Origin: a virus
Taxonomy: Duplodnaviria > Caudoviricetes
Length of the DNA stretch: 64,000 bases
Virus record (IMG/VR): IMGVR_UViG_3300012983_000031
Location: 128,001-192,000 of that record
Strand: one strand, 5' to 3'
Position numbers and translations under genes: made by a program. Shown piece by piece: positions 3,031 through 42,208 of the stretch. The notes below the pieces were generated by a model, which saw nothing but the letters and a program-made list of their open reading frames with translations, did not search any database and was not told where the DNA came from. Position 1 is the first letter of the stretch. Each line of letters starts with the position of its first letter.

Positions 3031-3531
3031 ATGAAGTTCTATGGCACAATCGAACCATGCAGAAGGCTAAAAAATTTGTTTAGTAATTTAAGTTCGTTTT
3101 ACATTATTGATGTAGATACCATACTTAAAGAGTCTGGGCTTGATCCAAATAAGAATACGCATAAGTATCTTATAAACGCCGAACTCGAACGGCTTATAAC
3201 ATCAGGCGCGAAATCAAAAAGGTATCTTGGTATGATCTATATAAACAGTAAGCTTAACTGTGATACAATCATATCAATTAAAAAATCGATCGAAACGTTA
3301 ACCAATTCAGCTATAGAAAGTTTTGTCATCCTTGATGATTTCGATACGCCAAAATTACATGATTACTATACGTTGTTTGATGAGGTTGTGTTTTTCCCGT
3401 CATTAAAGAAAACGAAGATAATCGAGTGTGTACCTCGAATTATGCCAAAAATCAATAAACTAGAAAATGTTAAGAAGAATAATATCTTTTCTGAAGAACC
3501 TGTTCAAGAAGAAACGGTTCAAGCCGATTAA
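3031..3531 (+). CDS. hypothetical protein
   Basis: 166-aa ORF after an ATAAATA motif. Confidence 0.6.
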   Translation: MKFYGTIEPCRRLKNLFSNLSSFYIIDVDTILKESGLDPNKNTHKYLINAELERLITSGAKSKRYLGMIYINSKLNCDTIISIKKSIETLTNSAIESFVILDDFDTPKLHDYYTLFDEVVFFPSLKKTKIIECVPRIMPKINKLENVKKNNIFSEEPVQEETVQAD

Positions 3532-3627
3532 GCACCCTAAACAAATAGAACTTGTTGGTGGAGGTTTTGTGCCAGCCTCTGACTACATGTGCGTGAAAGT
3601 CTCTGAACTTAAGGAAATGAAAAAAGG

Positions 3628-4740: not shown

Positions 4741-4862
4741 TTTCTTTTCTATTTGAAAAAATAGTTGTACATTTGCAACATATTTATTTATAAGATTTAA
4801 TCGTTTTTGTTTTTTAATCGTATAATGAATAGAAGGGGAATCATTTAAGCATATCAAAGACA

Positions 4863-6368: not shown

Positions 6369-6395
6369 TTATAAACGTTTAAAAATAAAATAATT

Positions 6396-6833
6396 ATGAA
6401 TACAACTAATTTAAAATGTACAAGATGTATGCACGATCTTGAAGTAGAGGAATTTCTCGAAAGTGAAGATCCTGAGTTCGGTAACACAACTTTTCTTTTC
6501 TGTCCCTACTGTGGTGCCAAATATGAATGCACAGAGGCACCAGAAAATGAGAAGGATAAGTATGAATTCTATCAGAATGGGGAAGATATCGACGGAAGGA
6601 TCACCGAACCAGATATCCTTAACGGTCACTGCACAAACTGTGGGCATAAAGTTACTGTGTCCAATAATTTCATGCTTTCAGATTATGATGATACAATCAC
6701 GGATGAAAATGAAGATAAGATGAATTTCATCATGAATGAATGCCCATATTGTGGAATGTGTGAAGTTCGTTGGGATAACTCAAATAACGAACGTGAAGTG
6801 TTCCCGTACTGGAAAGAAAACCAACAAGAGTGA
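6396..6833 (+). CDS. double Zn-ribbon protein
   Basis: Four CxxC motifs (CTRC, CPYC, CTNC, CPYC). Confidence 0.65.
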   Translation: MNTTNLKCTRCMHDLEVEEFLESEDPEFGNTTFLFCPYCGAKYECTEAPENEKDKYEFYQNGEDIDGRITEPDILNGHCTNCGHKVTVSNNFMLSDYDDTITDENEDKMNFIMNECPYCGMCEVRWDNSNNEREVFPYWKENQQE

Positions 6834-7117
6834 TTATGGAAAAGAAAGACAAAAAACAGAATGTGTTCGATATAAACGATTTCAAGCCAATCACAACGGA
6901 AAAATATAAATCATGCGTTTCATATAATGAAATGATTCCTGCTGAAACACTGACAACAATGTACAGGTGGGGGTGGAAATTGATTCATTTTTCTGCGTTT
7001 GCTAAATCAAAAACAATAGGATATAGCACACAAGAAGGCGTAGGAATGGAAGTATATGCATATATGTTTGAAAATAAACGATTTATGGACGATATTAAAA
7101 ACACATTAAACGAATGA
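6830..7117 (+). CDS. hypothetical protein
   Basis: ORF coupled to both neighbours. Confidence 0.55.
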   Translation: MIMEKKDKKQNVFDINDFKPITTEKYKSCVSYNEMIPAETLTTMYRWGWKLIHFSAFAKSKTIGYSTQEGVGMEVYAYMFENKRFMDDIKNTLNE

Positions 7118-7812
7118 TAAAACATGATCGAAACAATAAAAACGTTCTTGAAGGATCCGATTCTTTTGCATTATTCGGCGACGACGTTTGTGTTCATATT
7201 GACAATAGGAATACTGGCGTTCGCAATAAAGATGAACAAGAGGCTGAAAAGACTAAATTTGAAAAACAGACTGGAGCACAACCAGCTGATGAAAAACCAG
7301 ACAAATCTGAACATGGTTCTGAGAAAACTGGACGCAAAATTAGGAGAGGATTCAGAGCACTTGAAAACAATAAAAACTCTATTGGTTCAGAAAGTGATGC
7401 CGATGCTGTCAAAGGATCAAGTCATTCAAAAACTGATGGACAACGTGAACACGTTGGAAACGAACAACAAAGCTTTGATAAAGCAAATACAAGACGTGTC
7501 AGAAGAACTCGACGAACTAAATCATCAATATCAAACGATGAAGGAGGAAATGGAGTTCAAAAGCACGGCACTACCGCTACAGAAACTGTAGATATATCAG
7601 CATATCCTCTTAGGGAATTTGAAACAACTTCTGTTATACAAAACTGTGCAATAACTGGAAGACCGAAACAAACAGATGAGTTCGGAACAGTTGAGGTTCT
7701 TATCGATGGAGTTCGCCGCAAGGTTTCTGAATGGTCAATTAAAGGCGGACAATATATTCAAGGTCTCGATAGCAGATTTCTTGTTTCAAAATATAAAACT
7801 GGAAAGAAATAA
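7114..7812 (+). CDS. hypothetical protein overlapping 7124-7591 in another frame
   Basis: ATGA coupling to the upstream gene, globular-looking C-terminus, terminator hairpin after the stop. Confidence 0.45.
   Translation: MIKHDRNNKNVLEGSDSFALFGDDVCVHIDNRNTGVRNKDEQEAEKTKFEKQTGAQPADEKPDKSEHGSEKTGRKIRRGFRALENNKNSIGSESDADAVKGSSHSKTDGQREHVGNEQQSFDKANTRRVRRTRRTKSSISNDEGGNGVQKHGTTATETVDISAYPLREFETTSVIQNCAITGRPKQTDEFGTVEVLIDGVRRKVSEWSIKGGQYIQGLDSRFLVSKYKTGKK
7124..7591 (+). CDS. membrane-anchored coiled-coil protein
   Basis: N-terminal TM helix, then heptad-rich helix; lies entirely inside the 7114-7812 ORF. Confidence 0.5.
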   Translation: MIETIKTFLKDPILLHYSATTFVFILTIGILAFAIKMNKRLKRLNLKNRLEHNQLMKNQTNLNMVLRKLDAKLGEDSEHLKTIKTLLVQKVMPMLSKDQVIQKLMDNVNTLETNNKALIKQIQDVSEELDELNHQYQTMKEEMEFKSTALPLQKL

Positions 7813-7858
7813 AATGATGGCTGGATAACGCTCCAGCCATTTTTTATTTAGATAAATA

Positions 7859-8581
7859 GTGAAAGAAAATCCAAAAACAATGCTAGTTCCACAACGAACA
7901 ATAAAAAGTGACAGAAAAGATTTTGAACAGCTGCTAAATGGTTTGGATCCAATCCATACACCTTCTCCAGTGCAAGATCCTCAACCATCGGAAAAGGCAC
8001 CTAAACCTACACCTGTTGACAATACAAGTGCAGCCGAAACGATGAAAGTAAAAATGTTTGATTACGATTACGATTTAAACAAAAAAATACTTAGGAAAAA
8101 GGCAAGAAAAACTATACTTGGGGCTGTTAAGCATATCATGAGTGATGATTTGCTTGAATATGAATATGTTAAGGATAAAATTGAACAAGATATAGATACG
8201 TTGACATCATTATATGTTCAGCTTGATAGCAACATGACGATGCAAAGATCCATCATGGAAAATGTTAACTCTGGAAACTCTGCGCCAAGAATGTATGAGG
8301 TGTTCGCGCAACTGACTGATAAAATACAGGCGATCACTAAACAAATATTCGAGTCTGAACAAAGAATCAGGAAAACATATATTGACCTGAAGTTCGAGAT
8401 TAGAGATAAAGAGGGAGAAGCCAATATAGCAGCACAGCAGCAGAAAGACCCAGCTAAACTTGAAGCTCCTACATCTATGGTTGTCACATCTACAAAAAAT
8501 CTTATCAGCGGGGCAAGGCAAAGACACATAGACAAGATAAATAACGTAAAAGAAGCTGAATTTGAAATTAAAGATTGGTAA
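7859..8581 (+). CDS. putative terminase small subunit (T4 gp16-like)
   Basis: APRMYEVFAQL resembles the gp16 PRxYEV motif; two genes upstream of terL. Confidence 0.5.
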   Translation: MKENPKTMLVPQRTIKSDRKDFEQLLNGLDPIHTPSPVQDPQPSEKAPKPTPVDNTSAAETMKVKMFDYDYDLNKKILRKKARKTILGAVKHIMSDDLLEYEYVKDKIEQDIDTLTSLYVQLDSNMTMQRSIMENVNSGNSAPRMYEVFAQLTDKIQAITKQIFESEQRIRKTYIDLKFEIRDKEGEANIAAQQQKDPAKLEAPTSMVVTSTKNLISGARQRHIDKINNVKEAEFEIKDW

Positions 8582-8585
8582 CGTT

Positions 8586-8963
8586 ATGCAAATCAAAGAG
8601 ATATATATAAGAGACGAAAATGATCCATATTACGATCCAACAATGATTGATTTTAACAACGAAATCGAATCAATCATAACGCAAATCAGAATGATACTTG
8701 GAACGCAAAATGGACAGGTGTTAGGGAACTATGATTTTGGAATTGATCTTGAATATATGGTTTTTAACACGAAACATGCAGCAGAACAGGTTTTAGATAA
8801 ACTAAATACACAAATAAGAACTTATGTGAATCATGGGGAAAATACTTACATAACAACAAACATAGAGTTCGGAGATTCAGGACTAGGATATGATTATGCT
8901 GTTCTTGACATATACATCAACGGAGTAAAAAGCATAGGTTTCCTCATAGATAAAAACCAGTAA
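8586..8963 (+). CDS. gp25/GPW-like baseplate wedge protein
   Basis: QIRMILGTQNGQVLGNYDFGIDL matches the gp25 pattern. Confidence 0.65.
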   Translation: MQIKEIYIRDENDPYYDPTMIDFNNEIESIITQIRMILGTQNGQVLGNYDFGIDLEYMVFNTKHAAEQVLDKLNTQIRTYVNHGENTYITTNIEFGDSGLGYDYAVLDIYINGVKSIGFLIDKNQ

Positions 8964-8971
8964 AGTGGAAC

Positions 8972-11065
8972 ATGGCTGAAAATACACAGGAAGGAAATAA
9001 ACGGAAACAAAGAAAGATATACTCAACAGAAAGGATCAATTCGCTCATCGAAGAACGAAACAATGGATATGAAATTGATTTTGAACCGTTCTTCATGAGA
9101 GATCTTGATCTTAGAGCGGCTAATATACCGTTCCAGATGACTGAGGAGGAAATGATAGAATATCAAAAATGCTATGATGACCCCCTCTATTATGCGTCTC
9201 ATTATGCAAAGTTCATGACGGATCATGGATTCAGAACAGTAGAGTTGAGAGATTATCAGGTGGAAATAATTGACAAGGCAACAGAAGAAGTGTATGATGA
9301 GGAAAGGGATCTTCTGCTGCCAGTTAACCGCAATATTATACTTTGCTGTAGCAGGCAAACTGGAAAAACGACCACCATCGCCGTATTTCTTTCATGGATG
9401 CTTATCTTTCATATCGACAGGAATATTCTTGTTGTAGCCAATAAGGAAAAGACATCAATAGAGATTGTTGATAAAATTATCAATATATTCAAAGGTCTTC
9501 CATTCTGGTTGAAACCTGGCACAGAAATATGGGCAAAAACACAGCTTAAACTCGATAACGGATCTAAAATACTTTCATCAGCAACAACAAACACAGCATC
9601 AATCGGTTTCACGATCCACTGTGTGCTGCTTGATGAGTTTGCGCATATTCCAGATAATATAGTTAACAACTTCTGGCGTTCAGTTTACCCAACACTTTCT
9701 TCTTCAGATGTATCACAGTGCATCATATGTTCTACACCGAACGGAACTACTAACAAATATTATGATCTTTGGTCTGGAGCACTGGAAAAGAAGAACTCTT
9801 TCATACCAATAAGGGTAGATTACTGGCAGTTCCCAGGACATGATGAGGAGTGGGCTAAGAAGATGAGGGCAGACTTCGGTGAAGATGAGTTCGCGCAGGA
9901 GTTTGAACTTCAGTTCAATAAGAACTCCAGAATGTTGATGAAGGCTGATGACATGAGATTTATCGAACGTATTGCCGTAGAATATGAACAAAAGCACATA
10001 TATATAAACAATCAGTACGTCAACGATGAACATATAACATGGCATCCAGATTTTGATCCTAATGATATAAACGAGAATGATGTGTTTGTTTTCCTTGTTG
10101 ACTTGGCTGAAGGAAACGGCGATCCAGATGAACGTGTTCAATCAAAGAAAAAAACACCAGATGCTAACTCGATACAGATATTAAAGGTTGTTCCAAATTC
10201 ACCAGCGAACTTAAGGCGTTACTCTCATCTTAGTTGCAGGATATCGGACTGCATACGTTTTGTACAGGTTGGAAAATACAAGAACAGTTCTGAGGACGAA
10301 ATACAGTGCGCACGCGTTTGTTCAGCTCTGGCATACAATCTTTTCAAAGATCATGAACGCAATAATGTAAGAGTTATGGTTGAGATGAACTTCAACGGAA
10401 AATCGTTTTTCGAGGAATTCAAGAGACATTCATCATACAGCGGTGCGACGATACAGAAAACATATCACAAGAAACCTATCCCTGGAGAAACGCAGAAAAG
10501 AAAATACGGTTTCAAGACAACCACAAACAAGGAGTATTACTGCAATAAGGGAAACAAGATGATTACAATGAAGCGAACCATTGTCACATGCAAGGAGACA
10601 TTCGATCAGATGAAATCATTCGGTTACATTAAGAGTAAGCTCGGAGGAATATCTTGCCATGATGACCTTTCTCTCCCAATTTTCAATCATATACCCAGAA
10701 TGATCGATGACAGCACATTCATTGGATGGATTGAAGAATACCTGTATTTTAAGACAGATGGAACGAAACTTTATCAGATGAATGAAATCATAAAGCAATG
10801 GGCAATAGACAATCCAGACATGACCGATGATGAATTTACATCTTTGTATGGAATTGAAGAAACTAAATCCTCTATGGTGAACTTCAATGATGTCACATAC
10901 GGACAGACGGAAATGGGATGGCTTGAACCTAGACCGTATGGAAACGCTTATGCTAGTGGATACGGATCCATTTATATCGAAGGAAGCGGTCTTGGGCTTG
11001 GTATGGGAACAATAGGAAGCAGTGTTGGACACCTTACCTACTCTCAAATCGCAGGATTAAAATAA
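8972..11065 (+). CDS. terL: terminase large subunit (T4 gp17-like)
   Basis: LRDYQ, Walker A SRQTGKTT, Walker B LLDEFAH, STPNG coupling motif, FAQEF, and C-terminal HDD nuclease motif. Confidence 0.92.
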   Translation: MAENTQEGNKRKQRKIYSTERINSLIEERNNGYEIDFEPFFMRDLDLRAANIPFQMTEEEMIEYQKCYDDPLYYASHYAKFMTDHGFRTVELRDYQVEIIDKATEEVYDEERDLLLPVNRNIILCCSRQTGKTTTIAVFLSWMLIFHIDRNILVVANKEKTSIEIVDKIINIFKGLPFWLKPGTEIWAKTQLKLDNGSKILSSATTNTASIGFTIHCVLLDEFAHIPDNIVNNFWRSVYPTLSSSDVSQCIICSTPNGTTNKYYDLWSGALEKKNSFIPIRVDYWQFPGHDEEWAKKMRADFGEDEFAQEFELQFNKNSRMLMKADDMRFIERIAVEYEQKHIYINNQYVNDEHITWHPDFDPNDINENDVFVFLVDLAEGNGDPDERVQSKKKTPDANSIQILKVVPNSPANLRRYSHLSCRISDCIRFVQVGKYKNSSEDEIQCARVCSALAYNLFKDHERNNVRVMVEMNFNGKSFFEEFKRHSSYSGATIQKTYHKKPIPGETQKRKYGFKTTTNKEYYCNKGNKMITMKRTIVTCKETFDQMKSFGYIKSKLGGISCHDDLSLPIFNHIPRMIDDSTFIGWIEEYLYFKTDGTKLYQMNEIIKQWAIDNPDMTDDEFTSLYGIEETKSSMVNFNDVTYGQTEMGWLEPRPYGNAYASGYGSIYIEGSGLGLGMGTIGSSVGHLTYSQIAGLK

Positions 11066-11977: not shown

Positions 11978-12547
11978 ATGGCAAAAACTGTTAAGAAAAA
12001 TGAAGCTAAGGCAAAGGAAACTGCAGCACCAAAGAAAAGTGTTGTGGAAAATGTTGTTGCCGAAAGCAAACAGGACGAAAAGGTAATCAGCCTTGAGTCC
12101 GCAGAAAAGATTGAATCAACCGATGTATCGGAAATCATCAACAACGAAACAACTGAGGAATTTACAAACCTTAACACGGAAATCGTTGAAGAAGGAATCG
12201 TTAATCTTGAAGGTGAAACCAAAGACGAAAGTGAAACATTAAACGAAACAGAAGATACACAAAGTGAAACAACCGATGAATCATCAGATGATGATCAGCC
12301 ACAGGAAACACCAGTGGAGGAATACGCATCACTTCCAGAAGATATTTGGGTTGACGAACCTGTGACGTTAGATCCTACAATCTTTGAGAGAATCCCTGTG
12401 TATCCTATCACACCGAAATACACAGCGTGCCCTCCGACGGCGTTAACAAAAGTGTCACCTTCCGATACACCAAAATATAATGCACAATGTCCACCTAAGC
12501 CAGATACGGAAAAAGCAAAGTCATATGTTGCACAAAGACCGTATTAA
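11978..12547 (+). CDS. acidic low-complexity protein
   Basis: E/T-rich with a Pro-rich C-terminus; ATAAATA upstream. Confidence 0.6.
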   Translation: MAKTVKKNEAKAKETAAPKKSVVENVVAESKQDEKVISLESAEKIESTDVSEIINNETTEEFTNLNTEIVEEGIVNLEGETKDESETLNETEDTQSETTDESSDDDQPQETPVEEYASLPEDIWVDEPVTLDPTIFERIPVYPITPKYTACPPTALTKVSPSDTPKYNAQCPPKPDTEKAKSYVAQRPY

Positions 12548-12674
12548 TTGGCAAAAATAAAAAAAATAATGGTGGATCGTAAAAAATTCACCATTTTATT
12601 TTTCTATGTGAGAAAAAAGTTGTAACTTTGCAACAGATTTGAATAAATATAACGTTCTTTGACAATGAAAACAT

Positions 12675-12748
12675 CGCGGGGTGGAGCAGTTGGTAGCTCG
12701 CCAGGCTCATAACCTGGAGGTCGCAGGTTCGATTCCTGCCCACCGCAA
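12675..12748 (+). tRNA. tRNA-fMet(CAT)
   Basis: Cloverleaf, C1:A72 mismatch, CTCATAA loop. Confidence 0.88.
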
Positions 12749-12757
12749 CTAAGATGC

Positions 12758-12830
12758 GCCTCAATAGCACAGTGGCTAGTGCAGCTGATTTGTAATCAGC
12801 AGGTCGTTGGTTCGAATCCGACTTGAGGCT
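12758..12830 (+). tRNA. tRNA-Thr(TGT)
   Basis: Cloverleaf; GCTGA-TTTGTAA-TCAGC. Confidence 0.9.
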
Positions 12831-12868
12831 CAAATCCAAACTACCGAATGAGGATAATAATAAATTCG

Positions 12869-13094
12869 GCTGATATAGACGAAACTATCAGATGTAGCAT
12901 TAGCATCGGTTACTGGAACGAGTGGTGATCGTAAACAGATTAATAAACGTATAAGCCTGATGTGAATAACACAAAAGTTAGACGTGGGTGCAGTTTATGT
13001 TTCAAGAAAACGCTGAAATTGAAAGTCGTAACCAGCGATGTTGGTTTAATCTACTGCCCAGAACAACAAGATAAAAACTCAATACGATATCAGC
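12869..13094 (+). ncRNA. candidate structured ncRNA between tRNAs
   Basis: Closing stem GCTGATAT/ATATCAGC plus inner CATCGGTTAC/GTAACCAGCGATG pairing; no ORF. Confidence 0.4.
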
Positions 13095-13098
13095 ACAC

Positions 13099-13173
13099 GG
13101 GGGATTAGCTCAGTTTGGCTAGAGCACCTGCTTTGCACGCAGGGGGTCATCGGTTCGAGTCCGATATCCTCCA
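13099..13173 (+). tRNA. tRNA-Ala(TGC)
   Basis: Cloverleaf with G3:U70. Confidence 0.9.
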
Positions 13174-13219
13174 CAAAATATGACAGTTTAGAGAAATTGT
13201 TCATTAATTTATGCATCAG

Positions 13220-13293
13220 TGTGTATTAGTTCAGCTGGTTAGAATGCCTGCCTGTCACGCAGGAGGTCACGGGTTCGAGTCCCGTATGCACAG
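13220..13293 (+). tRNA. tRNA-Asp(GTC)
   Basis: Cloverleaf; CTGTCAC loop. Confidence 0.9.
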
Positions 13294-13352
13294 CAAATCT
13301 TTGTCATTTTTGCCTACCTCGAAAAAGAGGATGACTTTTTTGACAAGAATAT

Positions 13353-13500
13353 GGAAGACATACAGCAAAACTTTGAATAAACTTCCTAGATTCAATTTTG
13401 TTTAACTATGGCAAAAACTTTAGTCTTCTGATTATTTAAGGCACGCGTACAGCAAAAAAACTTTTATTTTCATTTTGGGATCAAAAAAGTTTGCGTGCTG
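13353..13500 (+). ncRNA. two tandem stem-RTACAGCAAAA-stem RNAs (possibly skipping-rope-like motif)
   Basis: GGAAGAC-ATACAGCAAAA...GTCTTCTG and GGCACGC-GTACAGCAAAA...GCGTGCTG, with covarying stems. Confidence 0.55.
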
Positions 13501-13505
13501 TTTTT

Positions 13506-13579
13506 AGGGTAGTATTTCAGTTGGTTAGAATTCTGCATTTGGGATGCAGAGGTCGCACGTTCGAGTCGTGTCTACCCTA
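13506..13579 (+). tRNA. tRNA-Pro(TGG)
   Basis: Cloverleaf; CTGCA-TTTGGGA-TGCAG. Confidence 0.88.
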
Positions 13580-13586
13580 CTACATC

Positions 13587-13682
13587 GGAGGGATAAGCCT
13601 AATTGGTAAGGCAGTGGTCTTGAAAACCACCAGTAATCAACTAAGACTTGATGTGTCGGTTCGAGTCCGACTCCCTCCTCCA
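13587..13682 (+). tRNA. tRNA-Ser(TGA)
   Basis: Long variable arm; encoded CCA. Confidence 0.85.
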
Positions 13683-13687
13683 GGAGA

Positions 13688-13778
13688 GGTGGGTTACCCA
13701 AGTTGGTGAAGGGGGGACATTGCTAACGTCCTAGGTCAGCTAATACCTGGCGCGGGGGTTCGAGTCCCTCACCCACCG
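13688..13778 (+). tRNA. tRNA-Ser(GCT)
   Basis: Long variable arm; G73. Confidence 0.85.
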
Positions 13779-13868
13779 CAACAAAATAACAAACATATGA
13801 TGAACTTCATAAAACATAAGAAACAATAGTTCATCCGTAACCAGATGAGTTATGGATGAATGATTTAT

Positions 13869-13941
13869 GTATCCATAGCTCAGTAGGTAGAGCAACAGAC
13901 CTTTAATCTGTGGGTCGAGAGTTCGAGTCTCTCTGGATACA
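13869..13941 (+). tRNA. tRNA-Lys(TTT), atypical C33
   Basis: ACAGA-CCTTTAA-TCTGT anticodon arm. Confidence 0.85.
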
Positions 13942-13962
13942 CAAAAGACACTAATGTGAAGC

Positions 13963-14943
13963 ATGAACAAAAATTCTACAATTCGTTCAGCACAGGTAAC
14001 AAAGAATGATGAGTTCTATACACAAACAAAAGATATTGAAAAGGAACTCCAATACTATGTAAAACATTTCAATGGAAAAATTGTTCTATGCAATTGTAAC
14101 GATGCAACGCATGATGGGTTTGCAAAGTATTTCAGCGCAAATTTTGAAAAGCTAGGTCTTAAGGAACTTATCTGCACATCATTTTCAAAGGATGGGCATG
14201 GTAGGATATATAGATATTATGGAATAAAAAACGGAAACATTGTTCCTGATATAGATGAATTGGAACAAACAGAAATGGAAGGAAACGGAGGGTTCAATAC
14301 AATTGAAGGAATTGAACTCATAAAGAAATCTGATATTATCGTAACAAACCCGCCATTCTCACTGTTTAGAGAATTTATATCCATCCTGGAGAAGTACAAT
14401 AAAAAATATCTTATCATGTCAAACGGAAACGCAGTGACATATAACGATATATTTCCGTTAATAAAGGATAATAAAATGTGGTTGGGTTGCACCCTTTTTG
14501 TTGGTGAAATGCCATTCTTCAGGGTGAATAATGACACAGACGTATCAAAGGGTGAATATTATTATGATGATGACGGGAACTTATATAAACAAGTTAACAG
14601 CATTGCGTGGTTTACAAATCTTGATCACAATAAAAGGCATAAACAAATTGAATTGTATAAAAAATATAACCCTGATGAATATCAGAAATATGACAATTAT
14701 GATGCAATAAATGTTGGAAAGACAAAAAATATTCCTATGGATTACGATGGTGTGATGGGTGTACCTATTACATTTTTGTCAAAGTATTGTCCAGAACAAT
14801 TTGAAATAGTTGATTGCAGAAATTATACATCTAATGATCATTTGAAAAATAAACCGTCATTGCTGATTAAAGATTCAGCAAGCGCAATAAACGGTAAACC
14901 TGTATATGCAAGAATAGCGATTAAACGAATTCCGAATAAATAA
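13963..14943 (+). CDS. adenine-specific DNA methyltransferase, EcoRI_methylase family
   Basis: KNDEFYT, DIIVTNPPFSLFRE and IPMDYDGVMGVPITF motifs; no cognate endonuclease adjacent. Confidence 0.85.
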   Translation: MNKNSTIRSAQVTKNDEFYTQTKDIEKELQYYVKHFNGKIVLCNCNDATHDGFAKYFSANFEKLGLKELICTSFSKDGHGRIYRYYGIKNGNIVPDIDELEQTEMEGNGGFNTIEGIELIKKSDIIVTNPPFSLFREFISILEKYNKKYLIMSNGNAVTYNDIFPLIKDNKMWLGCTLFVGEMPFFRVNNDTDVSKGEYYYDDDGNLYKQVNSIAWFTNLDHNKRHKQIELYKKYNPDEYQKYDNYDAINVGKTKNIPMDYDGVMGVPITFLSKYCPEQFEIVDCRNYTSNDHLKNKPSLLIKDSASAINGKPVYARIAIKRIPNK

Positions 14944-14961
14944 AAGAAAAAACAATATACT

Positions 14962-15186
14962 ATGAGCTGGTTTACTGAAAGCAACCGTAAAAAGCATTTC
15001 TTCTATGGCATCCCTGTTGGGTTCGTGTTTACGATCCTTTGCGCTCTTGGTGTTGCATCTGGAATGGAGTTTAAGGATAAGCTATATGGAAACAAATGGG
15101 ATTGGATTGACTGGTCGATGACAATGGCAGGAGGTCTTGTCGGACAGATTTTGCAGGCTGTTATTTTATACTTTATATTTAAGTAG
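14962..15186 (+). CDS. small membrane protein
   Basis: Two hydrophobic helices; EFKDKLYGNKWDWID. Confidence 0.65.
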   Translation: MSWFTESNRKKHFFYGIPVGFVFTILCALGVASGMEFKDKLYGNKWDWIDWSMTMAGGLVGQILQAVILYFIFK

Positions 15187-15439
15187 ATCGGAGCAGCAAA
15201 CATTCGAAATATACAATTGAACATTCAATGAAAGAAGCAAAAAATATAAAACAAAAATAGAATTTAAAGCATAAATGAGGGATGCCTTACGATATATAAT
15301 TTGAGAATTGGTGGCGATTTTGAAAAACTACGGCTAATCAAAAAAAGAGCCGTATTTTTGCAAAAAAAATAATCTAATGCTTATATAATGTACTAAACGA
15401 TAAAAATTTTTTCGTGTTTGAATTAATTTTTATCGTTTT

Positions 15440-15480
15440 TTCTTTTCTATGTCAAATAAAAGTTGTAACTTTGCAACATC
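15440..15480 (+). promoter_or_regulatory. Bacteroidota housekeeping-sigma promoter driving the TnpB/Cas12-like gene
   Basis: TAACTTTG (-7 TAnnTTTG) at 15466-15473, in the same context as the other phage promoters. Confidence 0.7.
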
Positions 15481-15514
15481 AAACGAAATTAATAACTCAT
15501 AAATTAAAAAGAAT

Positions 15515-16789
15515 ATGGCTAATATCGCTGTCAAGTACAGAATATATCCTACCAAAGCACAAAGGAATTTTATTAATAAAAACATTGGTGCGAACAGATG
15601 GTTCTGGAACTATTGCATCGAGAAGAAGCAGAACGCTTATATTGAAAGCAAAAGAACAGGTGATAAAGCGTTGGCACGTATTGATGGTCAAACATTACGT
15701 GGTCATGTTAAAACATTAAAAGAAGAAGAAGAGACAAAATGGTTAAAGGATGTAAAGTTAAATTCCTTTAATTATGTTGTTGAACATTTTGATGAAGCAT
15801 ATAAAAGGTTTTTTGAAAAAAAAGCTGGAAAGCCAAAGAAGCATAAAAGAACAAGATCTGGCGCATTCACAACTCAAATTACTAAAGCTAGAAATATAGA
15901 AAATCTTATTGATTATAAGAATAATCGTATATATCTTGGTAAATTTATCAAAAACGAAAATGGTGAACCAGAACGTTTTGTAAAAGCCAAGATTCATAGA
16001 AAGGTTGATGGTACAATCATGAACATGACAATATCAAAAGATATTGATAATAGATACTATATATCTTTTTGTTTGAAGGTTGATGATTGGAAAAAGCCAA
16101 AGTCTCCAACATTAGATGGAACTATTGGTATAGATATGGGAATGTCAGAGGCTGGCGCTCTTTACGGATCTGATTTAAAAGTTAGATATGGATCTGATAA
16201 TATTGCTGGACTAACGGATAAAATAAACCGTATGGAAAGGCATTTAAAGAAATGGAGCAAAATAAAGTCAAAACGTTATAGCATTGAACGTAAGAAAAAA
16301 CGTACAGGGCAATCCAAAGGATATGTTGAAGCTGTTGAAAAATGTGCTGTTATACAATGCAAAATAAATCGTTTAAAATCTTATATAACTCATATGATGA
16401 CATCATCGATTGTGCATTGTGAGAATATTGATTCAATCGCAATAGAATCTTTGGATGTTAAAGAGATGATCGAGAAAAAGACAACAAACAATTTAAAAGA
16501 ACAAAAGGCTCGCAAGAGGAGAGCAAGAAGAAACCGCATCGTTCGTCTTGGCGAAATTTCCAGGCAACTTGAGTATAAAGCTGAAATAAATGGAAAGAAT
16601 TTTGTTAAAATTAATAAATGGTACCCATCTTCAAAAACATGTTCAGTGTGTGGATATAAAAATGATAATCTGAAATTAACTGACAGGTCTTGGGTTTGCC
16701 CTCACTGTCATACAGAACATCATAGAGATTTCAATGCTGCTGAAAATATTAAAAATGAAGGGTACAGGATGTTAACAAGTAAGAATTGA
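15515..16789 (+). CDS. tnpB: TnpB / miniature Cas12(f)-like RNA-guided RuvC nuclease, CRISPR-associated
   Basis: N-terminal KYRIYPT HTH_OrfB; RuvC-I GIDMG; RuvC-II AIESL; YPSSKTCSVC...CPHC zinc finger; RuvC-III RDFNAAENI. Confidence 0.92.
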   Translation: MANIAVKYRIYPTKAQRNFINKNIGANRWFWNYCIEKKQNAYIESKRTGDKALARIDGQTLRGHVKTLKEEEETKWLKDVKLNSFNYVVEHFDEAYKRFFEKKAGKPKKHKRTRSGAFTTQITKARNIENLIDYKNNRIYLGKFIKNENGEPERFVKAKIHRKVDGTIMNMTISKDIDNRYYISFCLKVDDWKKPKSPTLDGTIGIDMGMSEAGALYGSDLKVRYGSDNIAGLTDKINRMERHLKKWSKIKSKRYSIERKKKRTGQSKGYVEAVEKCAVIQCKINRLKSYITHMMTSSIVHCENIDSIAIESLDVKEMIEKKTTNNLKEQKARKRRARRNRIVRLGEISRQLEYKAEINGKNFVKINKWYPSSKTCSVCGYKNDNLKLTDRSWVCPHCHTEHHRDFNAAENIKNEGYRMLTSKN

Positions 16790-16819
16790 TCATAATATAA
16801 AACGTTGGTCGCGTTTCAG

Positions 16820-17025
16820 ACCCTACCCGTGTGTAGCGGGAATGTAATGTCCGTGGACAGATTTGTCGATTTAATCGATTGAACTTTTGTTCAACAGTGG
16901 CGTTCTTGATACATTTGTAATCGTAGAATAGTTGCGGAATGTGATTTGAAGCGGAAAAAATGAAATGACATCGGTCATTTCACCAAGCAGAACGTAAGTT
17001 CTGTATACAATATTTCTCCATAGCT
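16820..17025 (+). ncRNA. omegaRNA-derived, tracrRNA-like scaffold with anti-repeat
   Basis: TnpB right-end RNA-like signature CTACCCG..CGGGAATGTAATGTCCGTGGA...TGAAGCGGAAA. Hairpins at 16961-16982 and 16988-17003 (GUAA loop). 17008-17022 matches the repeat reverse complement at 13/15. Confidence 0.65.
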
Positions 17026-17055
17026 CTTTGATATACACAATGTTATACAACATAA

Positions 17056-17532
17056 GCTGTTTATTATGGCGAAATGTTGGATGGTTACAACTTAAACCAC
17101 ATGAATGATGATGATCCAGCGCTGTTTATTATGGCGAAATGTTGGATGGTTACAACTACGGGACAGTTCAAGAGAATAAATGATGGCTGTTTATTATGGC
17201 GAAATGTTGGATGGTTACAACGATATTCATAAGGCTCCTTCCTGTTCTAAGCTGTTTATTGTGGCGAAATGTTGGATGGTTACAACCCTACGATCTTTAA
17301 GCCATCTTTCATTGATGCTGTTTATTGTGGCGAAATGTTGGATGGTTACAACAGACAGTTGCACCAGATGACTGTTTATTGTGGCGAAATGTTGGATGGT
17401 TACAACTAACCCATTCGCCTCCTTGATGACGAGCCAGCTGTTTATTATGGTGAAATGTTGGATGGTTACAACTAGGATTTCTCCCTTCAGATTCTTGCTG
17501 TTTATTGTGGCAAAATGTTGGATTGTTACAAC
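17056..17532 (+). CRISPR. CRISPR array: 8 repeats of 36 bp (GCTGTTTATTRTGGCGAAATGTTGGATGGTTACAAC), 7 spacers
   Basis: Repeats start at 17056, 17121, 17186, 17251, 17317, 17371, 17437 and 17497. Spacers are 29, 29, 29, 30, 18, 30 and 24 nt. Repeats degenerate toward the right end. Confidence 0.97.
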
Positions 17533-17576
17533 CAAAAATAAATATCAAAAGCCAAAAAACAAACCAATAAATTAAA

Positions 17577-17888
17577 ATGGCAGCTATTCAAGAAATTTTT
17601 AATGCAGCGTTTTGGTACATGGCACCAATTCTTGTTGCGCTTTCTACAACTGTTACGGGTCTTGTGAATCAATGGTTCAAAATCCCTGATAAGTTTAAGC
17701 AACTTGCATCCTGGATTGTGGGCGCAGTTCTTTCCTGTGGAGCAATCTTCTTTGGATTCCTTGGTGAAAGCATAGGATGGCCAAGTTACATTGCGTTAAG
17801 CATCGTCGTGGGTCTATCATCAAATGGTATCTATGACATTGAAGCTATTAAGAAAATTATAGATTCATGGTTTAATAAGAAGAAATAA
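17577..17888 (+). CDS. holin-like membrane protein
   Basis: Three TM helices, GLSSNGIYD, basic C-terminus. Confidence 0.6.
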   Translation: MAAIQEIFNAAFWYMAPILVALSTTVTGLVNQWFKIPDKFKQLASWIVGAVLSCGAIFFGFLGESIGWPSYIALSIVVGLSSNGIYDIEAIKKIIDSWFNKKK

Positions 17889-18078
17889 TTTCATTCAATA
17901 ATAGCGTTTTCGATCCGTTGTCATCTTACAATGGGTCGATTTTTTTATTTTTTCGTTAAAATGTTTTTCTATGTCGAAAATAAGTTGTATCTTTGCAACG
18001 GAATTAAAAATAATTACAAAATGAATATCTCATATGTTCTTAGAGAGTTCAGATGTTACATTAATTGTAAGTTGAAAC

Positions 18079-18528
18079 ATGTTGGATATTGAGTTAACAA
18101 ATAAAACCTGCCAGGATTTTCTTGATCCTCAGCATGTGCATATGTTGCTGGATGCAGGTATTGACATGAGTGACGCTAAATATTGCGTTGTATCGCGTGA
18201 TGGAAAGCAATACGTTATGATGAAGGACAATGTTGATAAAACGCAATACAGCGAATGTTTGCCCACCTATTCGACCTCTGAGCTTTTATATAAGATTCCA
18301 GAATACCTATATATTGAAAAGAATGGGGAAGAATATTCAGGGGGATTCAAATTAAGCAAGGACGCTCCATTTTATCCAGCGTATTTTAGTTTACACAACA
18401 AAAATAAATCTATGTTTGATGAAAGCATACAGTGTTGTGCAGAGTATCCCATCCTGAGTCTTGCATATATATTGATACAATGTGTTAAACATGGTCATAA
18501 AATTGTGCAGGATATCAGTTCCAAATAA
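18079..18528 (+). CDS. hypothetical protein
   Basis: 149-aa ORF behind a TAnnTTTG promoter. Confidence 0.6.
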   Translation: MLDIELTNKTCQDFLDPQHVHMLLDAGIDMSDAKYCVVSRDGKQYVMMKDNVDKTQYSECLPTYSTSELLYKIPEYLYIEKNGEEYSGGFKLSKDAPFYPAYFSLHNKNKSMFDESIQCCAEYPILSLAYILIQCVKHGHKIVQDISSK

Positions 18529-18531
18529 AAA

Positions 18532-18589
18532 GGAAGCCGTACAGCAAAAATCCTTTATCAAAAATATTCAGGTGAATTTTTGGCTTCTG
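18532..18589 (+). ncRNA. third stem-GTACAGCAAAA-stem RNA
   Basis: GGAAGCC-GTACAGCAAAA...GGCTTCTG. Confidence 0.5.
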
Positions 18590-18611
18590 TTTCTTTGAAA
18601 TAAATATAAAG

Positions 18612-18774
18612 TCTGTTTCCAGCAGTAAGGGCGAAGTCGATTAACCATCGAACCTGTCCGTGAAGGTGGATACCGTCCAGTTGTGTTGCATCTGTGGTAG
18701 GTGCATGAGGTGACTGGCTGTCAAACAATTGAAAAATAACTTAGACGTAAGACAACACGGATGTTGGGTTCAGA
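18612..18774 (+). ncRNA. candidate structured ncRNA
   Basis: GC-richer non-coding tract with paired ends (TCTG..CCAGCA / TGTTGG..CAGA) and an inner TGCATCT/AGGTGCA hairpin. Confidence 0.35.
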
Positions 18775-18911
18775 TTTTTATAACTATTTCTATATCAGTA
18801 AGAACACTGAGTGAAAAATAAAGTTGAAATAAATACAAGGATAGACGAAAACAATTAGTGATATTTTAACAATATTTTCTTAAAACACTTAAAACAAAAA
18901 TTAAAGAGAAA

Positions 18912-19085
18912 ATGAAAAAGATTCTTTTTTTGGCAGCTGCCATGGTAGGCATGACTTTCGCTGCATGTAACAATGGTACAGCTACAGAAACAGTTGAAAA
19001 CGACAGCATCAGTGCAGACAGCGTTGAGGTTGTAGACACAACAGCCGTTGATAGCATCGTTGCAGATTCTGTTGTCGCTGAGTAA
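18912..19085 (+). CDS. small Bacteroidota-type lipoprotein (57 aa, missed by the ORF track)
   Basis: MKKILFLAAAMVGMTFAAC lipobox followed by an acidic DS-rich tail. Confidence 0.75.
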   Translation: MKKILFLAAAMVGMTFAACNNGTATETVENDSISADSVEVVDTTAVDSIVADSVVAE

Positions 19086-19968: not shown

Positions 19969-20692
19969 GGACCTGTAGCTCAGTCGGTTAGAGCAACAGA
20001 CTCATAGTAATTGTGTGCTATGGCGAGAAATCCCATAGTAGAATCTTCCTAAAACGGTGGAAGACCTTTAGATGAATGTGATGGACCCCAAGTGGCGAAA
20101 GTGAAACGATTGACGTATGCAGTAAAATTCCTATATGGTTTGCATAATTGGAGGTGGAAACCCTCCCTTGAGAAGCATTCATCGAACAAACAAAACACTA
20201 ATCAATAATGTGTAAGGTTAATACCGTGCTAAATTGAGAATGCGTGAGAATAAAGAATCGGTCTATGAGAATAAACCATCTGCATAGAATCCCCTTTCTT
20301 ACGTTTTTAAATGAATAAATAATCGATGATGGCTCTTTTGTTTATTCCGTTCTCATAAATGTGTAGAGAGTATATAGGAGATATGAGGGAAATACATTGA
20401 ATACCCTCACATTCCATTCAGATGTATCTGATAAGAATGCCTAAGTTGAAATTAGAATATACAATGATAAAAGTAGTTCAAACGCAGAATTAAGAATGGT
20501 GTCCCATTTGGTCAGAGCAGATTGGCCTTCTGTAAGAATAATTGTATTGACACTTGCAAGAATTTCAATATGGTAATAATGTATTCCAGACTACAACAAC
20601 TTAATGAGTCGCCAAGCGTCTGAAAAAGTTGGCTATGGTAACATAGAGCAGCAGGAATCTGGAGGTCGTAGGTTCAAGCCCTACCTGGTCCA
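19969..20692 (+). tRNA. tRNA-Ile2/Met(CAT) interrupted by a group I intron
   Basis: Exon 1 19969-20005 (...ACAGACTCAT) plus exon 2 20656-20692 (AATCTGG...GGTTCAAG...GGTCCA) rebuild a cloverleaf. Confidence 0.85.
20006..20655 (+). mobile_element. group I intron, about 650 nt, no homing endonuclease ORF
   Basis: U.G P1 at the 5' splice site; P AAACGGTGGAA; Q AATACCGTGCTAA; R GTAGAGAGTATA; S AATGTATTCC; terminal G. Confidence 0.82.
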
Positions 20693-20701
20693 CATATCTT
20701 C

Positions 20702-20775
20702 GCTCCAGTAGCTCAGTTGGTTAGAGCAACGGACTGTTAATCCGTGTGTCGGTGGTTCGAGCCCACCCTGGAGCG
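20702..20775 (+). tRNA. tRNA-Asn(GTT)
   Basis: Cloverleaf. Confidence 0.9.
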
Positions 20776-20848
20776 CAAAATAAGAAAAATAAGTAATTGT
20801 ACCACAGACCGCTGAAAGCAGTAAGGATTCCAAATTAGATAAATCAAA

Positions 20849-20993
20849 TAGGTAGCCGTACTACCGAATTTACGCTTGTGGACTATCCAACTATGGATGA
20901 ACGTGGTTTACCACCTAAAAAGTAGTGATAGGTTGAAGCAAGAAATAAAATGTATGAGATTCATAGATTTTCATAGAATTTTATATACGGTAA
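20849..20993 (+). ncRNA. orphan TnpB omegaRNA-like scaffold
   Basis: GGTAG..CTACCGAATTTACGCTTGTGGA...TGAAGCAAGAAA with no tnpB ORF; nested inside a 14-bp inverted repeat (20779-20792 / 21063-21076). Confidence 0.55.
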
Positions 20994-21078
20994 TATCATA
21001 TGTAAAGACTTACAGGCGTACAGCTATTAAGAGGAAATAAACGTTAAAGCGAGGTTGTTCCTTTATTTTTCTTATTAT

Positions 21079-21162
21079 GGCTTCATGGTGGAATGGTAGA
21101 CACGAGGGACTTAAAATCCCTTGGGCATTGCGCCCGTGCGGGTTCGAGTCCCGCTGAAGCTA
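21079..21162 (+). tRNA. tRNA-Leu(TAA)
   Basis: Cloverleaf with long variable arm. Confidence 0.9.
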
Positions 21163-21167
21163 CAACC

Positions 21168-21249
21168 GTTCCTGTGGCGGAATTGGTAGACGCGTCAGAC
21201 TTAGGATCTGATGTCTCATGACGTGCAGGTTCGAGTCCTGTCAGGAACA
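21168..21249 (+). tRNA. tRNA-Leu(TAG)
   Basis: Cloverleaf with long variable arm. Confidence 0.9.
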
Positions 21250-21254
21250 CAAAT

Positions 21255-21326
21255 TGCCCTGTAGTATAATTGGTAGTACAACAGATTTTGGTTCTGTCGG
21301 AACAGGTTCGAATCCTGTCAGGGTAA
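21255..21326 (+). tRNA. tRNA-Gln(TTG)
   Basis: Cloverleaf. Confidence 0.88.
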
Positions 21327-21350
21327 CAAGTAACAAACTTAAGCATAAAT

Positions 21351-21524
21351 ATGTTAAGACGTGATGAATTGATAGAACTTTCTGGACAGGTCATTAATGG
21401 CATGATGTCTGCTGACAATAACATATGGGTACAGTTGCTTGACAGAACTGTACACATTCAGGCAGCAAAGACAGCTGTAGCGATTGCAAATGACATGCTT
21501 AAGGAAATTGATAAGCTTGAATAA
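21351..21524 (+). CDS. small protein (57 aa, missed by the ORF track), likely paralog of 35705-35965
   Basis: NGMMSAD...QAAKTAVAIANDML versus TGLFAAD...WAAKTAMFTVERL. Confidence 0.6.
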   Translation: MLRRDELIELSGQVINGMMSADNNIWVQLLDRTVHIQAAKTAVAIANDMLKEIDKLE

Positions 21525-21525
21525 T

Positions 21526-21600
21526 CTCTGGTTGGCTGAGTGGTCAAAGGCGACGGTCTGCAAAACCGTAAAACCAGCGGTTCGAATCCGCTACCAGAGT
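21526..21600 (+). tRNA. tRNA-Cys(GCA)
   Basis: Cloverleaf; U73. Confidence 0.88.
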
Positions 21601-22179
21601 CTAATTATAGTTGACAAAATCAATGAGTAGTATTTCTCTGTTTGTTCCTTTGCTTATATTTTGTTTATTATTGAAGTAAGCGTAGATTCTTGGGAACCAA
21701 TCGTCAATTAATCTCGGTGCCATAACCGAAGAATACTTTCCTTCTTCCGATGGTTTGTGTTTGAATGAATAATCATTTTCATAATTATACAAATTATTGC
21801 CGCACCAAAACTTGATGTCTGGCAATTCTTTTTCTATTGCACTGCAAAAATTACGGAATCGTTCGACATTATTTGCAGTGTATTCTTTTTTTGTCCTTGC
21901 TTCGTGCAACACTCTGACGTAGCAGTCTTTCTTGTTGTTGATGTATTGAAGATCCTTTGCCATTTGTTTAGGTGTGTAGTCATACACATATTTTCCATGA
22001 GCGAACAATGTTTTACCGTCTTTGTCATATTTGACACGAAGATCGAAGCATCTTACTCCATATTTTTCATATTGTGTCTGGATGTCATAATCCTGACATT
22101 GAGCCATAAAGTGAAACAGATTCATCCACCATTTTTTACCTTTCAAATATGACCATGAATTGTGTGATCCGAGTATCAT
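21601..22179 (-). CDS. PI-PLC-like phosphodiesterase
   Basis: GSHNS, Q..GVRCFDLRV and FAHG motifs. Confidence 0.75.
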   Translation of the reverse strand: MILGSHNSWSYLKGKKWWMNLFHFMAQCQDYDIQTQYEKYGVRCFDLRVKYDKDGKTLFAHGKYVYDYTPKQMAKDLQYINNKKDCYVRVLHEARTKKEYTANNVERFRNFCSAIEKELPDIKFWCGNNLYNYENDYSFKHKPSEEGKYSSVMAPRLIDDWFPRIYAYFNNKQNISKGTNREILLIDFVNYN

Positions 22180-24685: not shown

Positions 24686-24758
24686 GCAGCAATAGCTCAT
24701 CTGGCAGAGCGTCAGGCTTCCATCCTGAAGGTGGTGAGTTCGATCCTCACTTGCTGCT
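24686..24758 (+). tRNA. tRNA-Gly(TCC)
   Basis: Cloverleaf directly behind a TAACTTTG promoter. Confidence 0.88.
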
Positions 24759-24767
24759 CAAACAACA

Positions 24768-24951
24768 TTAGGCTCATCATAGTTTGGCTTTAGGATAAGC
24801 GCGGTTGAGGATTTGATCACCTTGGCGACGTTGTGCTGACACCGATGGCGAATTAAGATAAGAATTGTAACACTACGAGACGGCTCTGTGAGTGTCTGAC
24901 ATGATAGGTTACGCCTGCAGGAATTCTGATTTTGATTATATGTGAGTCTAA
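24768..24951 (+). ncRNA. candidate ~184-nt structured RNA between tRNAs
   Basis: Ends pair: TTAGGCTCATCATAGTT / GATTATATGTGAGTCTAA. Confidence 0.4.
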
Positions 24952-24954
24952 TTC

Positions 24955-25028
24955 GCTCTCTTAGCTCAGTTGAATAGAGCAACAGATTTCTAATCTGTGG
25001 GTCGAGGGTTTGAATCCCTCAGAGAGTA
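24955..25028 (+). tRNA. tRNA-Arg(TCT)
   Basis: Cloverleaf; T-loop TTTGAAT variant. Confidence 0.85.
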
Positions 25029-25049
25029 CTATTTTAAAATCAAAACATT

Positions 25050-42137: not shown

Positions 42138-42208
42138 CTAAAATATTTTGTTCAATACAAATAAAAGCGGTAACTTTGCAACAAAATAAAACTAAACATA
42201 AAACAATT

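Follow-up and report, generated by a model that had tools for sequence, protein, structure and literature searches.

The locus at positions 15,440 to 17,532 of a 64,000-nucleotide stretch of phage DNA (the window, positions 128,001 to 192,000 of IMG/VR virus record IMGVR_UViG_3300012983_000031) raises the question of whether a TnpB-like nuclease and the CRISPR array that follows its gene act together and, if so, what kind of system they form. Our results make it likely that this phage-borne, immobilised TnpB works as a minimal type V-like CRISPR effector of the TranC type. The evidence lies in the parts of the locus, their conservation in related phages, the covariation between a scaffold RNA and the repeats, the occurrence of scaffold sequence in RNA libraries and the turnover of spacers. 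The TnpB-scaffold-array system is probably active.

The protein is a TnpB with its catalytic residues in place. The first-pass annotation, made from the window's letters alone, had described an intact TnpB-like nuclease of 424 amino acids (aa), and the RuvC residues D207 (GIDMG), E311 (AIESL) and D405 (RDFNAA), together with the zinc-finger cysteines C376, C379, C395 and C398, are indeed invariant in alignments of 15 and of 57 relatives. The protein scores 216 bits with the NCBIfam model guided_TnpB (NF040570; cut-off, 100), carries the Pfam domains HTH_OrfB_IS605 and Cas12f1-like_TNB, and has the HTH-WED-RuvC-zinc finger order of the TnpB family. It stays below the cut-offs of the equivalog-level models for IS200/IS605 TnpB (NF038281; 209 bits versus 425) and IS607 TnpB (NF038280; 121 bits versus 350). 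The PADLOC models Cas12u4 (153 bits) and Cas12f (150 bits) both score lower than the TnpB model. The closest solved chain by sequence is ISDra2 TnpB (expect value [E] 7e-31, full length), followed by an AI-designed ISDra2 TnpB derivative and ISFba1 TnpB; Cas12n (9j09), LaTranC and Cas12f give progressively weaker, partial matches, with the solved Cas12f chains at E 5e-6 to 1e-3 and mostly aligned in the C-terminal region only. An AlphaFold2 model (predicted local distance difference test score, 89; predicted template modelling score, 0.81) matches ISDra2 TnpB (8h1j) best, with a template modelling (TM) score of 0.79 by target, and ISFba1 TnpB at 0.74 by target. Fold matches to Fanzor2, Cas12f, LaTranC and Cas12p (rank 22) are ranked lower; Cas12f, at TM 0.54 to 0.63, lies under the TnpB matches, which places the protein outside that family, and the REC and WED expansions of Cas12f and Cas12n are absent from the model. 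Because sequence, predicted fold and family scores all favour TnpB over Cas12f, the effector is, as far as sequence and modelling go, an unexpanded, plain TnpB. The ratio of nonsynonymous to synonymous substitution rates (dN/dS) is 0.24 between the window and its 98%-identical strain copy L001 (14 differences) and about 0.05 between the related loci L004 and L007, and the effector gene is thus under purifying selection.

The whole virus record (G000) is 220 kb long, with an estimated completeness of about 60%. The first-pass annotation had noted the lack of a transposase, a serine recombinase and cas1/cas2 in the 64 kb, and this extends to the whole record: no Cas1, Cas2 or serine recombinase was found in the 220 kb, nor any credible Y1 TnpA, the single sub-threshold match to which contains an internal stop. 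The record holds one copy of tnpB and one CRISPR array. With a single-copy, transposase-less gene that resides in a phage, is under purifying selection and is linked to a scaffold and an array, the suggestion that this TnpB has been domesticated is well founded.

The annotation had proposed examining whether homologues adjoin the same repeat family, and they do. A database search with the protein returned one 98%-identical relative, three at 44 to 45% identity and many at 32 to 40%. The loci examined were the strain copies L001 to L003, L004 to L006 (45%), L007 (44%), L011/L012, L013/L014, L095, L096 and L097/L177, as well as L183/L184 and L185, which form a 385-aa group, and the IMG/VR huge phages L179 to L182, which were found through a scaffold motif. 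Gene, scaffold and array (or mini-array) occur together in 13 of 13 related phage lineages (window/L001, L004, L007, L011, L013, L095, L096, L097/L177, L183, L185, L179, L180 and L181; also L176), in the order gene-scaffold-array in 12. The shared layout consists of the gene, a non-coding stretch of 200 to 350 nt and an array in which 36-nt repeats alternate with spacers about 30 nt long. In L004, a DUF7352 gene separates the scaffold from tnpB. L013 has a single full repeat beside two partial ones, and in L185 the contig breaks off within repeat 1. L176 carries its scaffold and a two-repeat mini-array (594-902 of that contig) about 3 kb upstream of the tnpB-like gene (4001-5203). The strain copies have the same neighbouring genes, and the linkage to an array is kept at 35 to 45% protein identity. 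These observations support the view that the TnpB-array linkage is a conserved trait of the family and not a chance adjacency. The clade is widespread in rumen and gut data. An IMG/VR scan with the single effector protein gave no match, and a profile scan of IMG/VR returned generic TnpBs only, at no more than 33% identity.

A phylogeny had also been called for. In a FastTree phylogeny of 128 TnpB proteins, the array-linked sequences form one clade of 53 rows with a support of 99, the other 75 rows being generic TnpBs. Among the 46 generic rows scored for an array, 44 have none within at least 900 nt downstream, one has a real array (L165) and one was a false call, the "array" of L085 being a 9-bp tandem repeat; counted over the outside relatives with sufficient flank, 44 of 45 lack an array. 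The tree was midpoint rooted and its supports are local Shimodaira-Hasegawa-like values, so that a single origin of the clade is likely rather than proven. The clade lies among ordinary TnpBs of the IS200/IS605 type, far from Cas12f, a position that fits a transition separate from the classical Cas12 subtypes. The annotation's idea of an independent TnpB-to-Cas12 transition is supported to that extent, but the transition is neither a one-off nor the source of a new type. L165 is a distant TnpB (33% identity) on a long branch outside the clade, from a 79-kb metagenome contig; its 7-repeat array (4254-4688) has the 36/30 geometry and ends in ACAAC but is not accompanied by the CCCTACC scaffold motif. 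L165 may be a separate capture of the same repeat style.

A scaffold RNA had been postulated as part of the system, and a conserved element is present between gene and array, within the 266 nt that separate the stop codon from repeat 1. From 5' to 3' it contains a CCCTACC 5' hairpin, a conserved single-stranded core, an A-rich stretch, two hairpins (in the window at about 16961-16982 and at 16987-17004), a short segment that complements the repeat and, leading into repeat 1, about 33 nt of linker. The two hairpins are wholly different in sequence between lineages and always keep their pairing, as read by eye from the alignments; the second usually has a GNRA loop. In 11 further lineages the scaffold likewise follows immediately on the stop codon, and one lineage has it displaced. 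A profile hidden Markov model of it matches every locus of the family (E 1e-26 to 1e-44) and, more weakly, the 3' ends of ordinary tnpB genes (L108/L109, 1e-13; L030, 6e-10; L082, 3e-6). Since these are the ends in which omegaRNAs are encoded, the overlapping matches indicate homology to omegaRNA, from which the scaffold is, on this sequence comparison, derived. A 36-nt degenerate scaffold motif has four exact matches in IMG/VR, three in phage records of 235 to 410 kb and one in a 45-kb fragment, and none in 185,579 prokaryote species genomes.

The scaffold and the repeats also vary together. The predicted duplex between the anti-repeat and the repeat has an energy of -17.4 kcal/mol with repeats 1 to 7 and -13.5 kcal/mol with repeat 8. 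Across 11 lineages, cognate scaffold-repeat pairs average -14.3 kcal/mol versus -10.5 kcal/mol for non-cognate pairs, and none of 20,000 permutations was as low (p<1e-4). The cognate effect is abolished when the scaffold is reverse-complemented or reversed (p 0.26 and 0.68) and persists among eight less related lineages (p 1e-4). L013 and L179, with near-identical scaffolds, have both anti-repeat and repeat altered in a compensatory manner. By these computations, the guide RNA would be split into a tracrRNA (trans-activating CRISPR RNA) that carries the anti-repeat and a crRNA (CRISPR RNA). A pseudoknot between the 3' end of the repeat and scaffold positions 16843-16848 was dropped, as the relatives show no covariation there by eye.

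In three metatranscriptome runs, from two studies, assembly gave one short contig per run that is confined to the scaffold (16814-17046, 16826-17030 and 16827-17016). The match takes up the entire contig in each case, without loose ends; the gene body is uncovered in two of the runs, and in the third it is represented by pieces of lower depth. The contig ends are not due to the repeats, which begin only at 17056. The evidence being assembled contigs, from which strand, true ends and abundance are not derivable, it gives a hint that a discrete scaffold RNA of about 200 to 230 nt accumulates. L004 and L007 have a Bacteroidota -7 box ahead of the scaffold, so that the scaffold is probably a transcription unit of its own there; together with the DUF7352 gene of L004, these features are located at 7334-7636 and 7700-7735 in L004 and at 2900-2935 in L007. 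No such box was seen ahead of the scaffold in the window, where processing of the mRNA at its 3' end may release the scaffold.

The window also holds an orphan second copy of the scaffold core at 20843-20960 (+ strand; nhmmer E 3e-9), between genes for tRNA-Asn and tRNA-Leu, with no tnpB, anti-repeat or repeat following it. L181, another huge phage, has a highly similar counterpart (6805-6884) with a compensatory hairpin change, and for this reason the orphan element probably functions as a small RNA, one related to the guide scaffold of TnpB. Near it, at 21072-21097, a sequence made up of the start of tRNA-Leu(taa) at its 5' end and the preceding 7 nt matches repeat nt 6-30 at 21 of 26 positions, which may be chance.

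Table 1. Features of the TnpB-array locus (positions in the window)
Feature	Position	Strand	Remark
Bacteroidota-type -7 promoter box, TAACTTTG	15466..15473	+	42 nt before the tnpB-like ATG; sequence read directly, promoter role putative
tnpB-like effector gene, 424 aa	15515..16789	+	RuvC triad and C4 zinc finger intact
OmegaRNA-derived scaffold, tracrRNA-like	~16818..17055	+	Conserved after the stop codon; profile and RNA-library contigs
Anti-repeat	17008..17022	+	Predicted pairing with repeat nt 10-24, in both the minimum free energy and the centroid structure computed for the scaffold together with repeat 1
CRISPR array, eight 36-nt repeats (GCUG...CAAC), seven spacers	17056..17532	+	Guide on the 3' side of each repeat, provided that array and gene are transcribed together
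Degenerate terminal repeat, 3 substitutions	17497..17532	+	Marks the leader-distal end

The array is as the annotation had described it. Its spacers measure 29, 29, 29, 30, 18, 30 and 24 nt. A degenerate repeat is also the last one in L001, L011 and L095, and its place at the far end fits transcription from the scaffold side. The arrays are far from static. Between the window and L001, 14 of 1272 nt have changed in the gene and 3 of 266 in the scaffold (1.1% of gene and scaffold positions), yet of their 7 to 8 spacers each, only spacers 4 and 5 are common; the differing spacers number three on the leader side and two or three at the distal end, and the repeat variants form a mosaic. L011 and L012 encode an identical protein; L012, whose contig ends inside the array, shows spacers 1, 5 and 6 of L011, with spacers 2 to 4 absent. 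With a near-identical gene and scaffold but mostly different spacers, the arrays change far faster than by point mutation, through acquisition, loss or recombination. In L007, a 13-repeat array (3211-4028) interleaves two repeat variants, set apart by compensatory changes both in the 5' hairpin and in the part that faces the anti-repeat; this contig also encodes a second protein of 547 aa with a Cas12f1-like_TNB domain (7206-8849).

From these elements we propose the following course of events. The tnpB-like gene would be transcribed from a phage promoter. The ancestral IS200/IS605 omegaRNA would have been split, with the scaffold part remaining 3' of the stop codon and its last segment becoming the 36-nt repeat of the array. 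The scaffold part would accumulate as a tracrRNA-like RNA of the length suggested by the contigs, and each repeat-spacer unit would pair with its anti-repeat, rebuilding an omegaRNA-like guide with the spacer as the 3' end; for spacer 1, the same structure could form in cis. The TnpB-guide ribonucleoprotein would most likely cut double-stranded DNA that matches the spacer, beside a short 5' motif, by means of the intact RuvC site. As the turnover is fast and the phage has no adaptation genes, new spacers would probably come from host Cas1-Cas2 or from recombination between arrays. The system would likely be turned on rival phages or on other elements that occupy the same Bacteroidota host, a role suggested by other phage CRISPR systems (PMC11656645). 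A further step would be that the whole clade has adopted the class 2 repeat standard of its Bacteroidota hosts, with 36-nt repeats, 30-nt spacers and GUUG...CAAC ends, which would let host Cas1-Cas2, the machinery that also serves type VI-B arrays lacking cas1, insert spacers during infection and possibly make the crRNAs readable by host Cas13b. We regard this step as unlikely; if it were true, a TnpB without adaptation genes would still have adaptive guides that turn over fast.

Several observations weigh against a working TnpB-guided system. With 15 bp and one mismatch, the duplex of the anti-repeat is short, and in a scan of the gene 3' end and the gap in the window, duplex energies were no better than those of shuffled sequence; a long anti-repeat was rejected on these shuffled-level energies, and the signal emerged only after restriction of the search to the 95 homologous nt and comparison of the lineages with one another. 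RNAalifold found no consensus structure, with 5 pairs only, in a raw MAFFT alignment of 11 scaffolds, a result due to misalignment of the variable hairpins. The RNA-library evidence is weakened by its basis in assembly and by possible carry-over of DNA. No crRNA was seen, the array being uncovered in the RNA contigs; because repeats do not assemble, the missing cover says nothing about crRNA. Several spacers are only 15 to 24 nt long, the short ones mostly distal. The guides of TnpB, as in ISDra2, are themselves short, and such spacers may therefore still work. The geometry of the repeats is that of host type VI-B arrays, and another effector is possible.

The spacers, finally, have no convincing protospacer in any of the sets searched, and hence provide no proof of their use. 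Both strain arrays gave only chance-level matches in 50,697 phage records (E up to 10), all 72 spacers of the clade gave self matches only in the 220-kb record and about 180 loci, and a 24-mer of spacer 4, the one spacer searched in this way, had no match in IMG/VR. A match of spacer 1 at 22 of 29 positions in a GAT-repeat stretch, from a comparison of the array with three related huge phages, was judged to be chance. A 24-mer taken from the repeat was matched exactly neither in IMG/VR nor in the 185,579 species genomes. Without a protospacer, the locus yields neither a target-adjacent motif (TAM) nor information on strand, and the biological role is argued by analogy with phage CRISPR systems.

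The array could instead serve a host type VI-B Cas13b or another class 2 effector of Bacteroidota, in place of or beside TnpB; the phage would then redirect host immunity at rivals or jam it, in the manner of viral mini-arrays and of RNA anti-CRISPRs. There are known cases of mini-arrays in viruses that work through host effectors (PMC11656645), and the Cas13b arrays of Bacteroidota have 36-nt repeats, 30-nt spacers and GUUG...CAAC ends and lack cas1/cas2 (10.1101/092577). The window array shares this 36/30 geometry, 55 of the 72 spacers in the clade arrays being 29 to 30 nt long, and it likewise lies in a locus without cas1/cas2 and differs in spacers between close strains. The exact GUUG...CAAC ends occur in L013, L177, L180 and L181, and the L181 repeat folds into a closed stem (z = -4.3). 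The complementary ends are not found in the window, however, where the repeat starts with GCUG, position 2 breaks the terminal GUUG/CAAC stem and the predicted fold has no closing stem. Moreover, across the 13 lineages the array never occurs without the TnpB scaffold, and the anti-repeat covaries with the repeat, which an array for Cas13b alone would not need. No Cas13b- or Cas9-like protein was found among the seven large open reading frames (ORFs) of the record (by Pfam; five also by PADLOC), and the repeat family is absent from the species genomes in the one exact 24-mer scan. We therefore consider a host effector quite unlikely as the user of the array.

Also to be weighed is a guided regulator or maintenance device, which would use fixed guides for the repression of host or phage genes or for homing-type repair that keeps the locus in the phage population, and not as a weapon. 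TnpB relatives have repeatedly become regulators, such as TldR and sigma-linked TnpB (PMC10691335; 10.1101/2023.11.30.569447); the absence of targets in other phages and the orphan scaffold-like RNA, array-less and conserved in two phages, would agree with such a role. The known regulators, however, have lost their RuvC residues (PMC10691335), whereas all three are kept throughout this clade; the spacers differ greatly between near-identical strains, unlike a fixed regulatory guide, and none matches the phage's own 220 kb, so that this role is very unlikely. That the locus is a decaying relic of an old IS insertion, its nuclease and array no longer cooperating, is suggested by the shortened spacers, the degenerate last repeat and the reduction of the L013 array. 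This is highly improbable given the dN/dS values of 0.05 to 0.24, the invariant catalytic residues, a scaffold that is both conserved and present in RNA libraries, the ongoing turnover of spacers and the size and spread of the clade. Least credible of all, and almost certainly wrong, is the reading of the gene as a regular mobile tnpB of the IS200/IS605 or IS607 kind, placed by coincidence beside an unrelated array. The protein does score best with TnpB models, and its PHROGs label is transposase; but the 220 kb hold a single copy and neither TnpA nor a serine recombinase, the strain copies have the same neighbours, and this reading is contradicted by the conserved linkage to an array.

A TnpB-guided CRISPR system thus remains the preferred reading, and systems of this kind are already on record. 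Type V-U comprises TnpB-derived effectors beside arrays, to which 40 further branches (V-U6 to V-U45) have been added, most of which lack further cas genes and have their array downstream of the effector gene (PMC10691335). TranC effectors are of TnpB size, have an omegaRNA split into tracrRNA and crRNA, and arose several times from IS605 or IS607 TnpBs (Jin et al., Cell 2025, as summarised in PMC13565253). The phage locus resembles them in the size of the effector, in the tracrRNA and the crRNAs of a downstream array, and in the absence of adaptation genes, and the defining trait of TranC, an effector of TnpB lineage consistently beside an array, is seen in the 13 lineages and the support of 99 for the clade. 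TranC clade 9 (CauTranC9) averages 414 aa without expanded domains, is encoded in a Caudoviricetes genome with a short array, and is active with a compact protospacer-adjacent motif, its native spacers being directed against phages (10.64898/2026.03.27.714800). Compared by description only, our locus fits clade 9 in the respects compared except for the repeat length, 36 bp here and a reported 38 bp there. It does not belong to the clade of LaTranC (9jfo/9jfq), which aligns over the C-terminal third only (E 8e-14) and gives a weaker fold match than ISDra2 TnpB.

The closest relatives in sequence and predicted fold are the ISDra2 and ISFba1 TnpBs (8h1j, 8exa, 8iaz) of the obligate mobile element-guided activity (OMEGA) systems, with which the phage protein shares the domain order, the RuvC triad and the zinc finger. 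In both, the guide scaffold lies on the 3' side of the gene and the guide at the 3' end of the scaffold. The phage locus differs in having no transposase, second copy or transposon ends, in a scaffold that begins after the stop codon, whereas omegaRNA overlaps the ORF, and in an eight-repeat array instead of a single guide fixed by the flanking DNA. With V-U, Cas12f and Cas12n systems it has in common a RuvC effector upstream of a short array, a tracrRNA between them and the lack of cas1/cas2/cas4, but the phage effector scores higher with TnpB models and lacks the REC/WED expansions (10.64898/2026.03.27.714800). In contrast to type VI-B, the phage arrays are tied to TnpB and its scaffold. Large phages often carry CRISPR systems without adaptation modules, which are presumed to act against rivals (PMC11656645); those of jumbo phages have larger effectors (Cas12p, 500 to 700 aa; Cas-lambda, about 750 aa) or arrays that rely wholly on host Cas proteins. 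The phage "hacker" Cas12p (10.1101/2025.01.20.633832) served as a comparison system and is only a weak fold match. A TnpB with tracrRNA and array is therefore not a new type of system: systems of this kind, one of them phage-borne, have been published as TranC and V-U (PMC10691335; PMC13565253; 10.64898/2026.03.27.714800), and the classification is unchanged for that reason.

The surroundings of the locus are those of a large phage. The window encodes a DNA polymerase, a large terminase, a holin-like protein and 15 tRNAs, with a tail sheath gene elsewhere in the 220-kb record; these hallmark genes and tRNAs confirm a large phage. The sequencing runs that contain this DNA are bovine gut or rumen metagenomes. 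The neighbours of the array are tnpB and the holin-like gene, and the 15 tRNA genes form three clusters (12676-13942, 20702-21601 and 24686-25029) that flank the locus. An Rfam scan of 12000-19000 and 20600-21700 found tRNAs only. Just upstream of the tnpB promoter region, a 19-nt inverted repeat (15395-15438; 89% complementary, 6-nt loop) is probably the terminator of the preceding small gene. The 8-mer TAACTTTG, which the annotation had taken for a promoter shared with ordinary phage genes, occurs 31 times in the window, 16 times on the + strand, over the first three quarters of the window, and 15 times on the - strand, all but one of these past 49 kb, the part of the window with negative GC skew. 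Ahead of the next gene block, at 17965-17999, there is another promoter region of 35 nt that is similar. The number and strand distribution of the copies make the shared-promoter reading a reasonable one, with the box as a putative promoter.

Outside the window, the other periodic repeats of the record are not CRISPR: they are a long 9-bp coding tandem repeat within a 1691-aa ORF (33243-33777) and tandem repeats of about 105 bp at the record start (1-470). Five further ORFs of 1220 to 1585 aa (5751-9458, 85067-88726, 102635-107140, 39708-44462 and 121131-124967) have no Pfam or PADLOC matches.

The locus is a natural example of the step from transposon to CRISPR, and what is new in it is the scaffold, the covariation, the linkage and the spacer turnover, not the system as such. 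It offers a well-preserved snapshot of that step, in which TnpB is unexpanded and the guide has already been divided into a helper RNA and guides that the array encodes. With at least 13 phage lineages, one of which has moved the guide cassette away from the gene, the clade permits a comparative dissection. Effectors of 385 to 450 aa with multiplexable short crRNAs are wanted as compact editors, for which the locus is a candidate, and the suggested scaffold boundaries (16814/16827 to 17016/17046) provide a starting guide design. For the biology of these phages, the fast turnover of spacers without an adaptation gene, together with a repeat standard shared with the host, raises the question of whether phage arrays borrow the spacer acquisition of their hosts.

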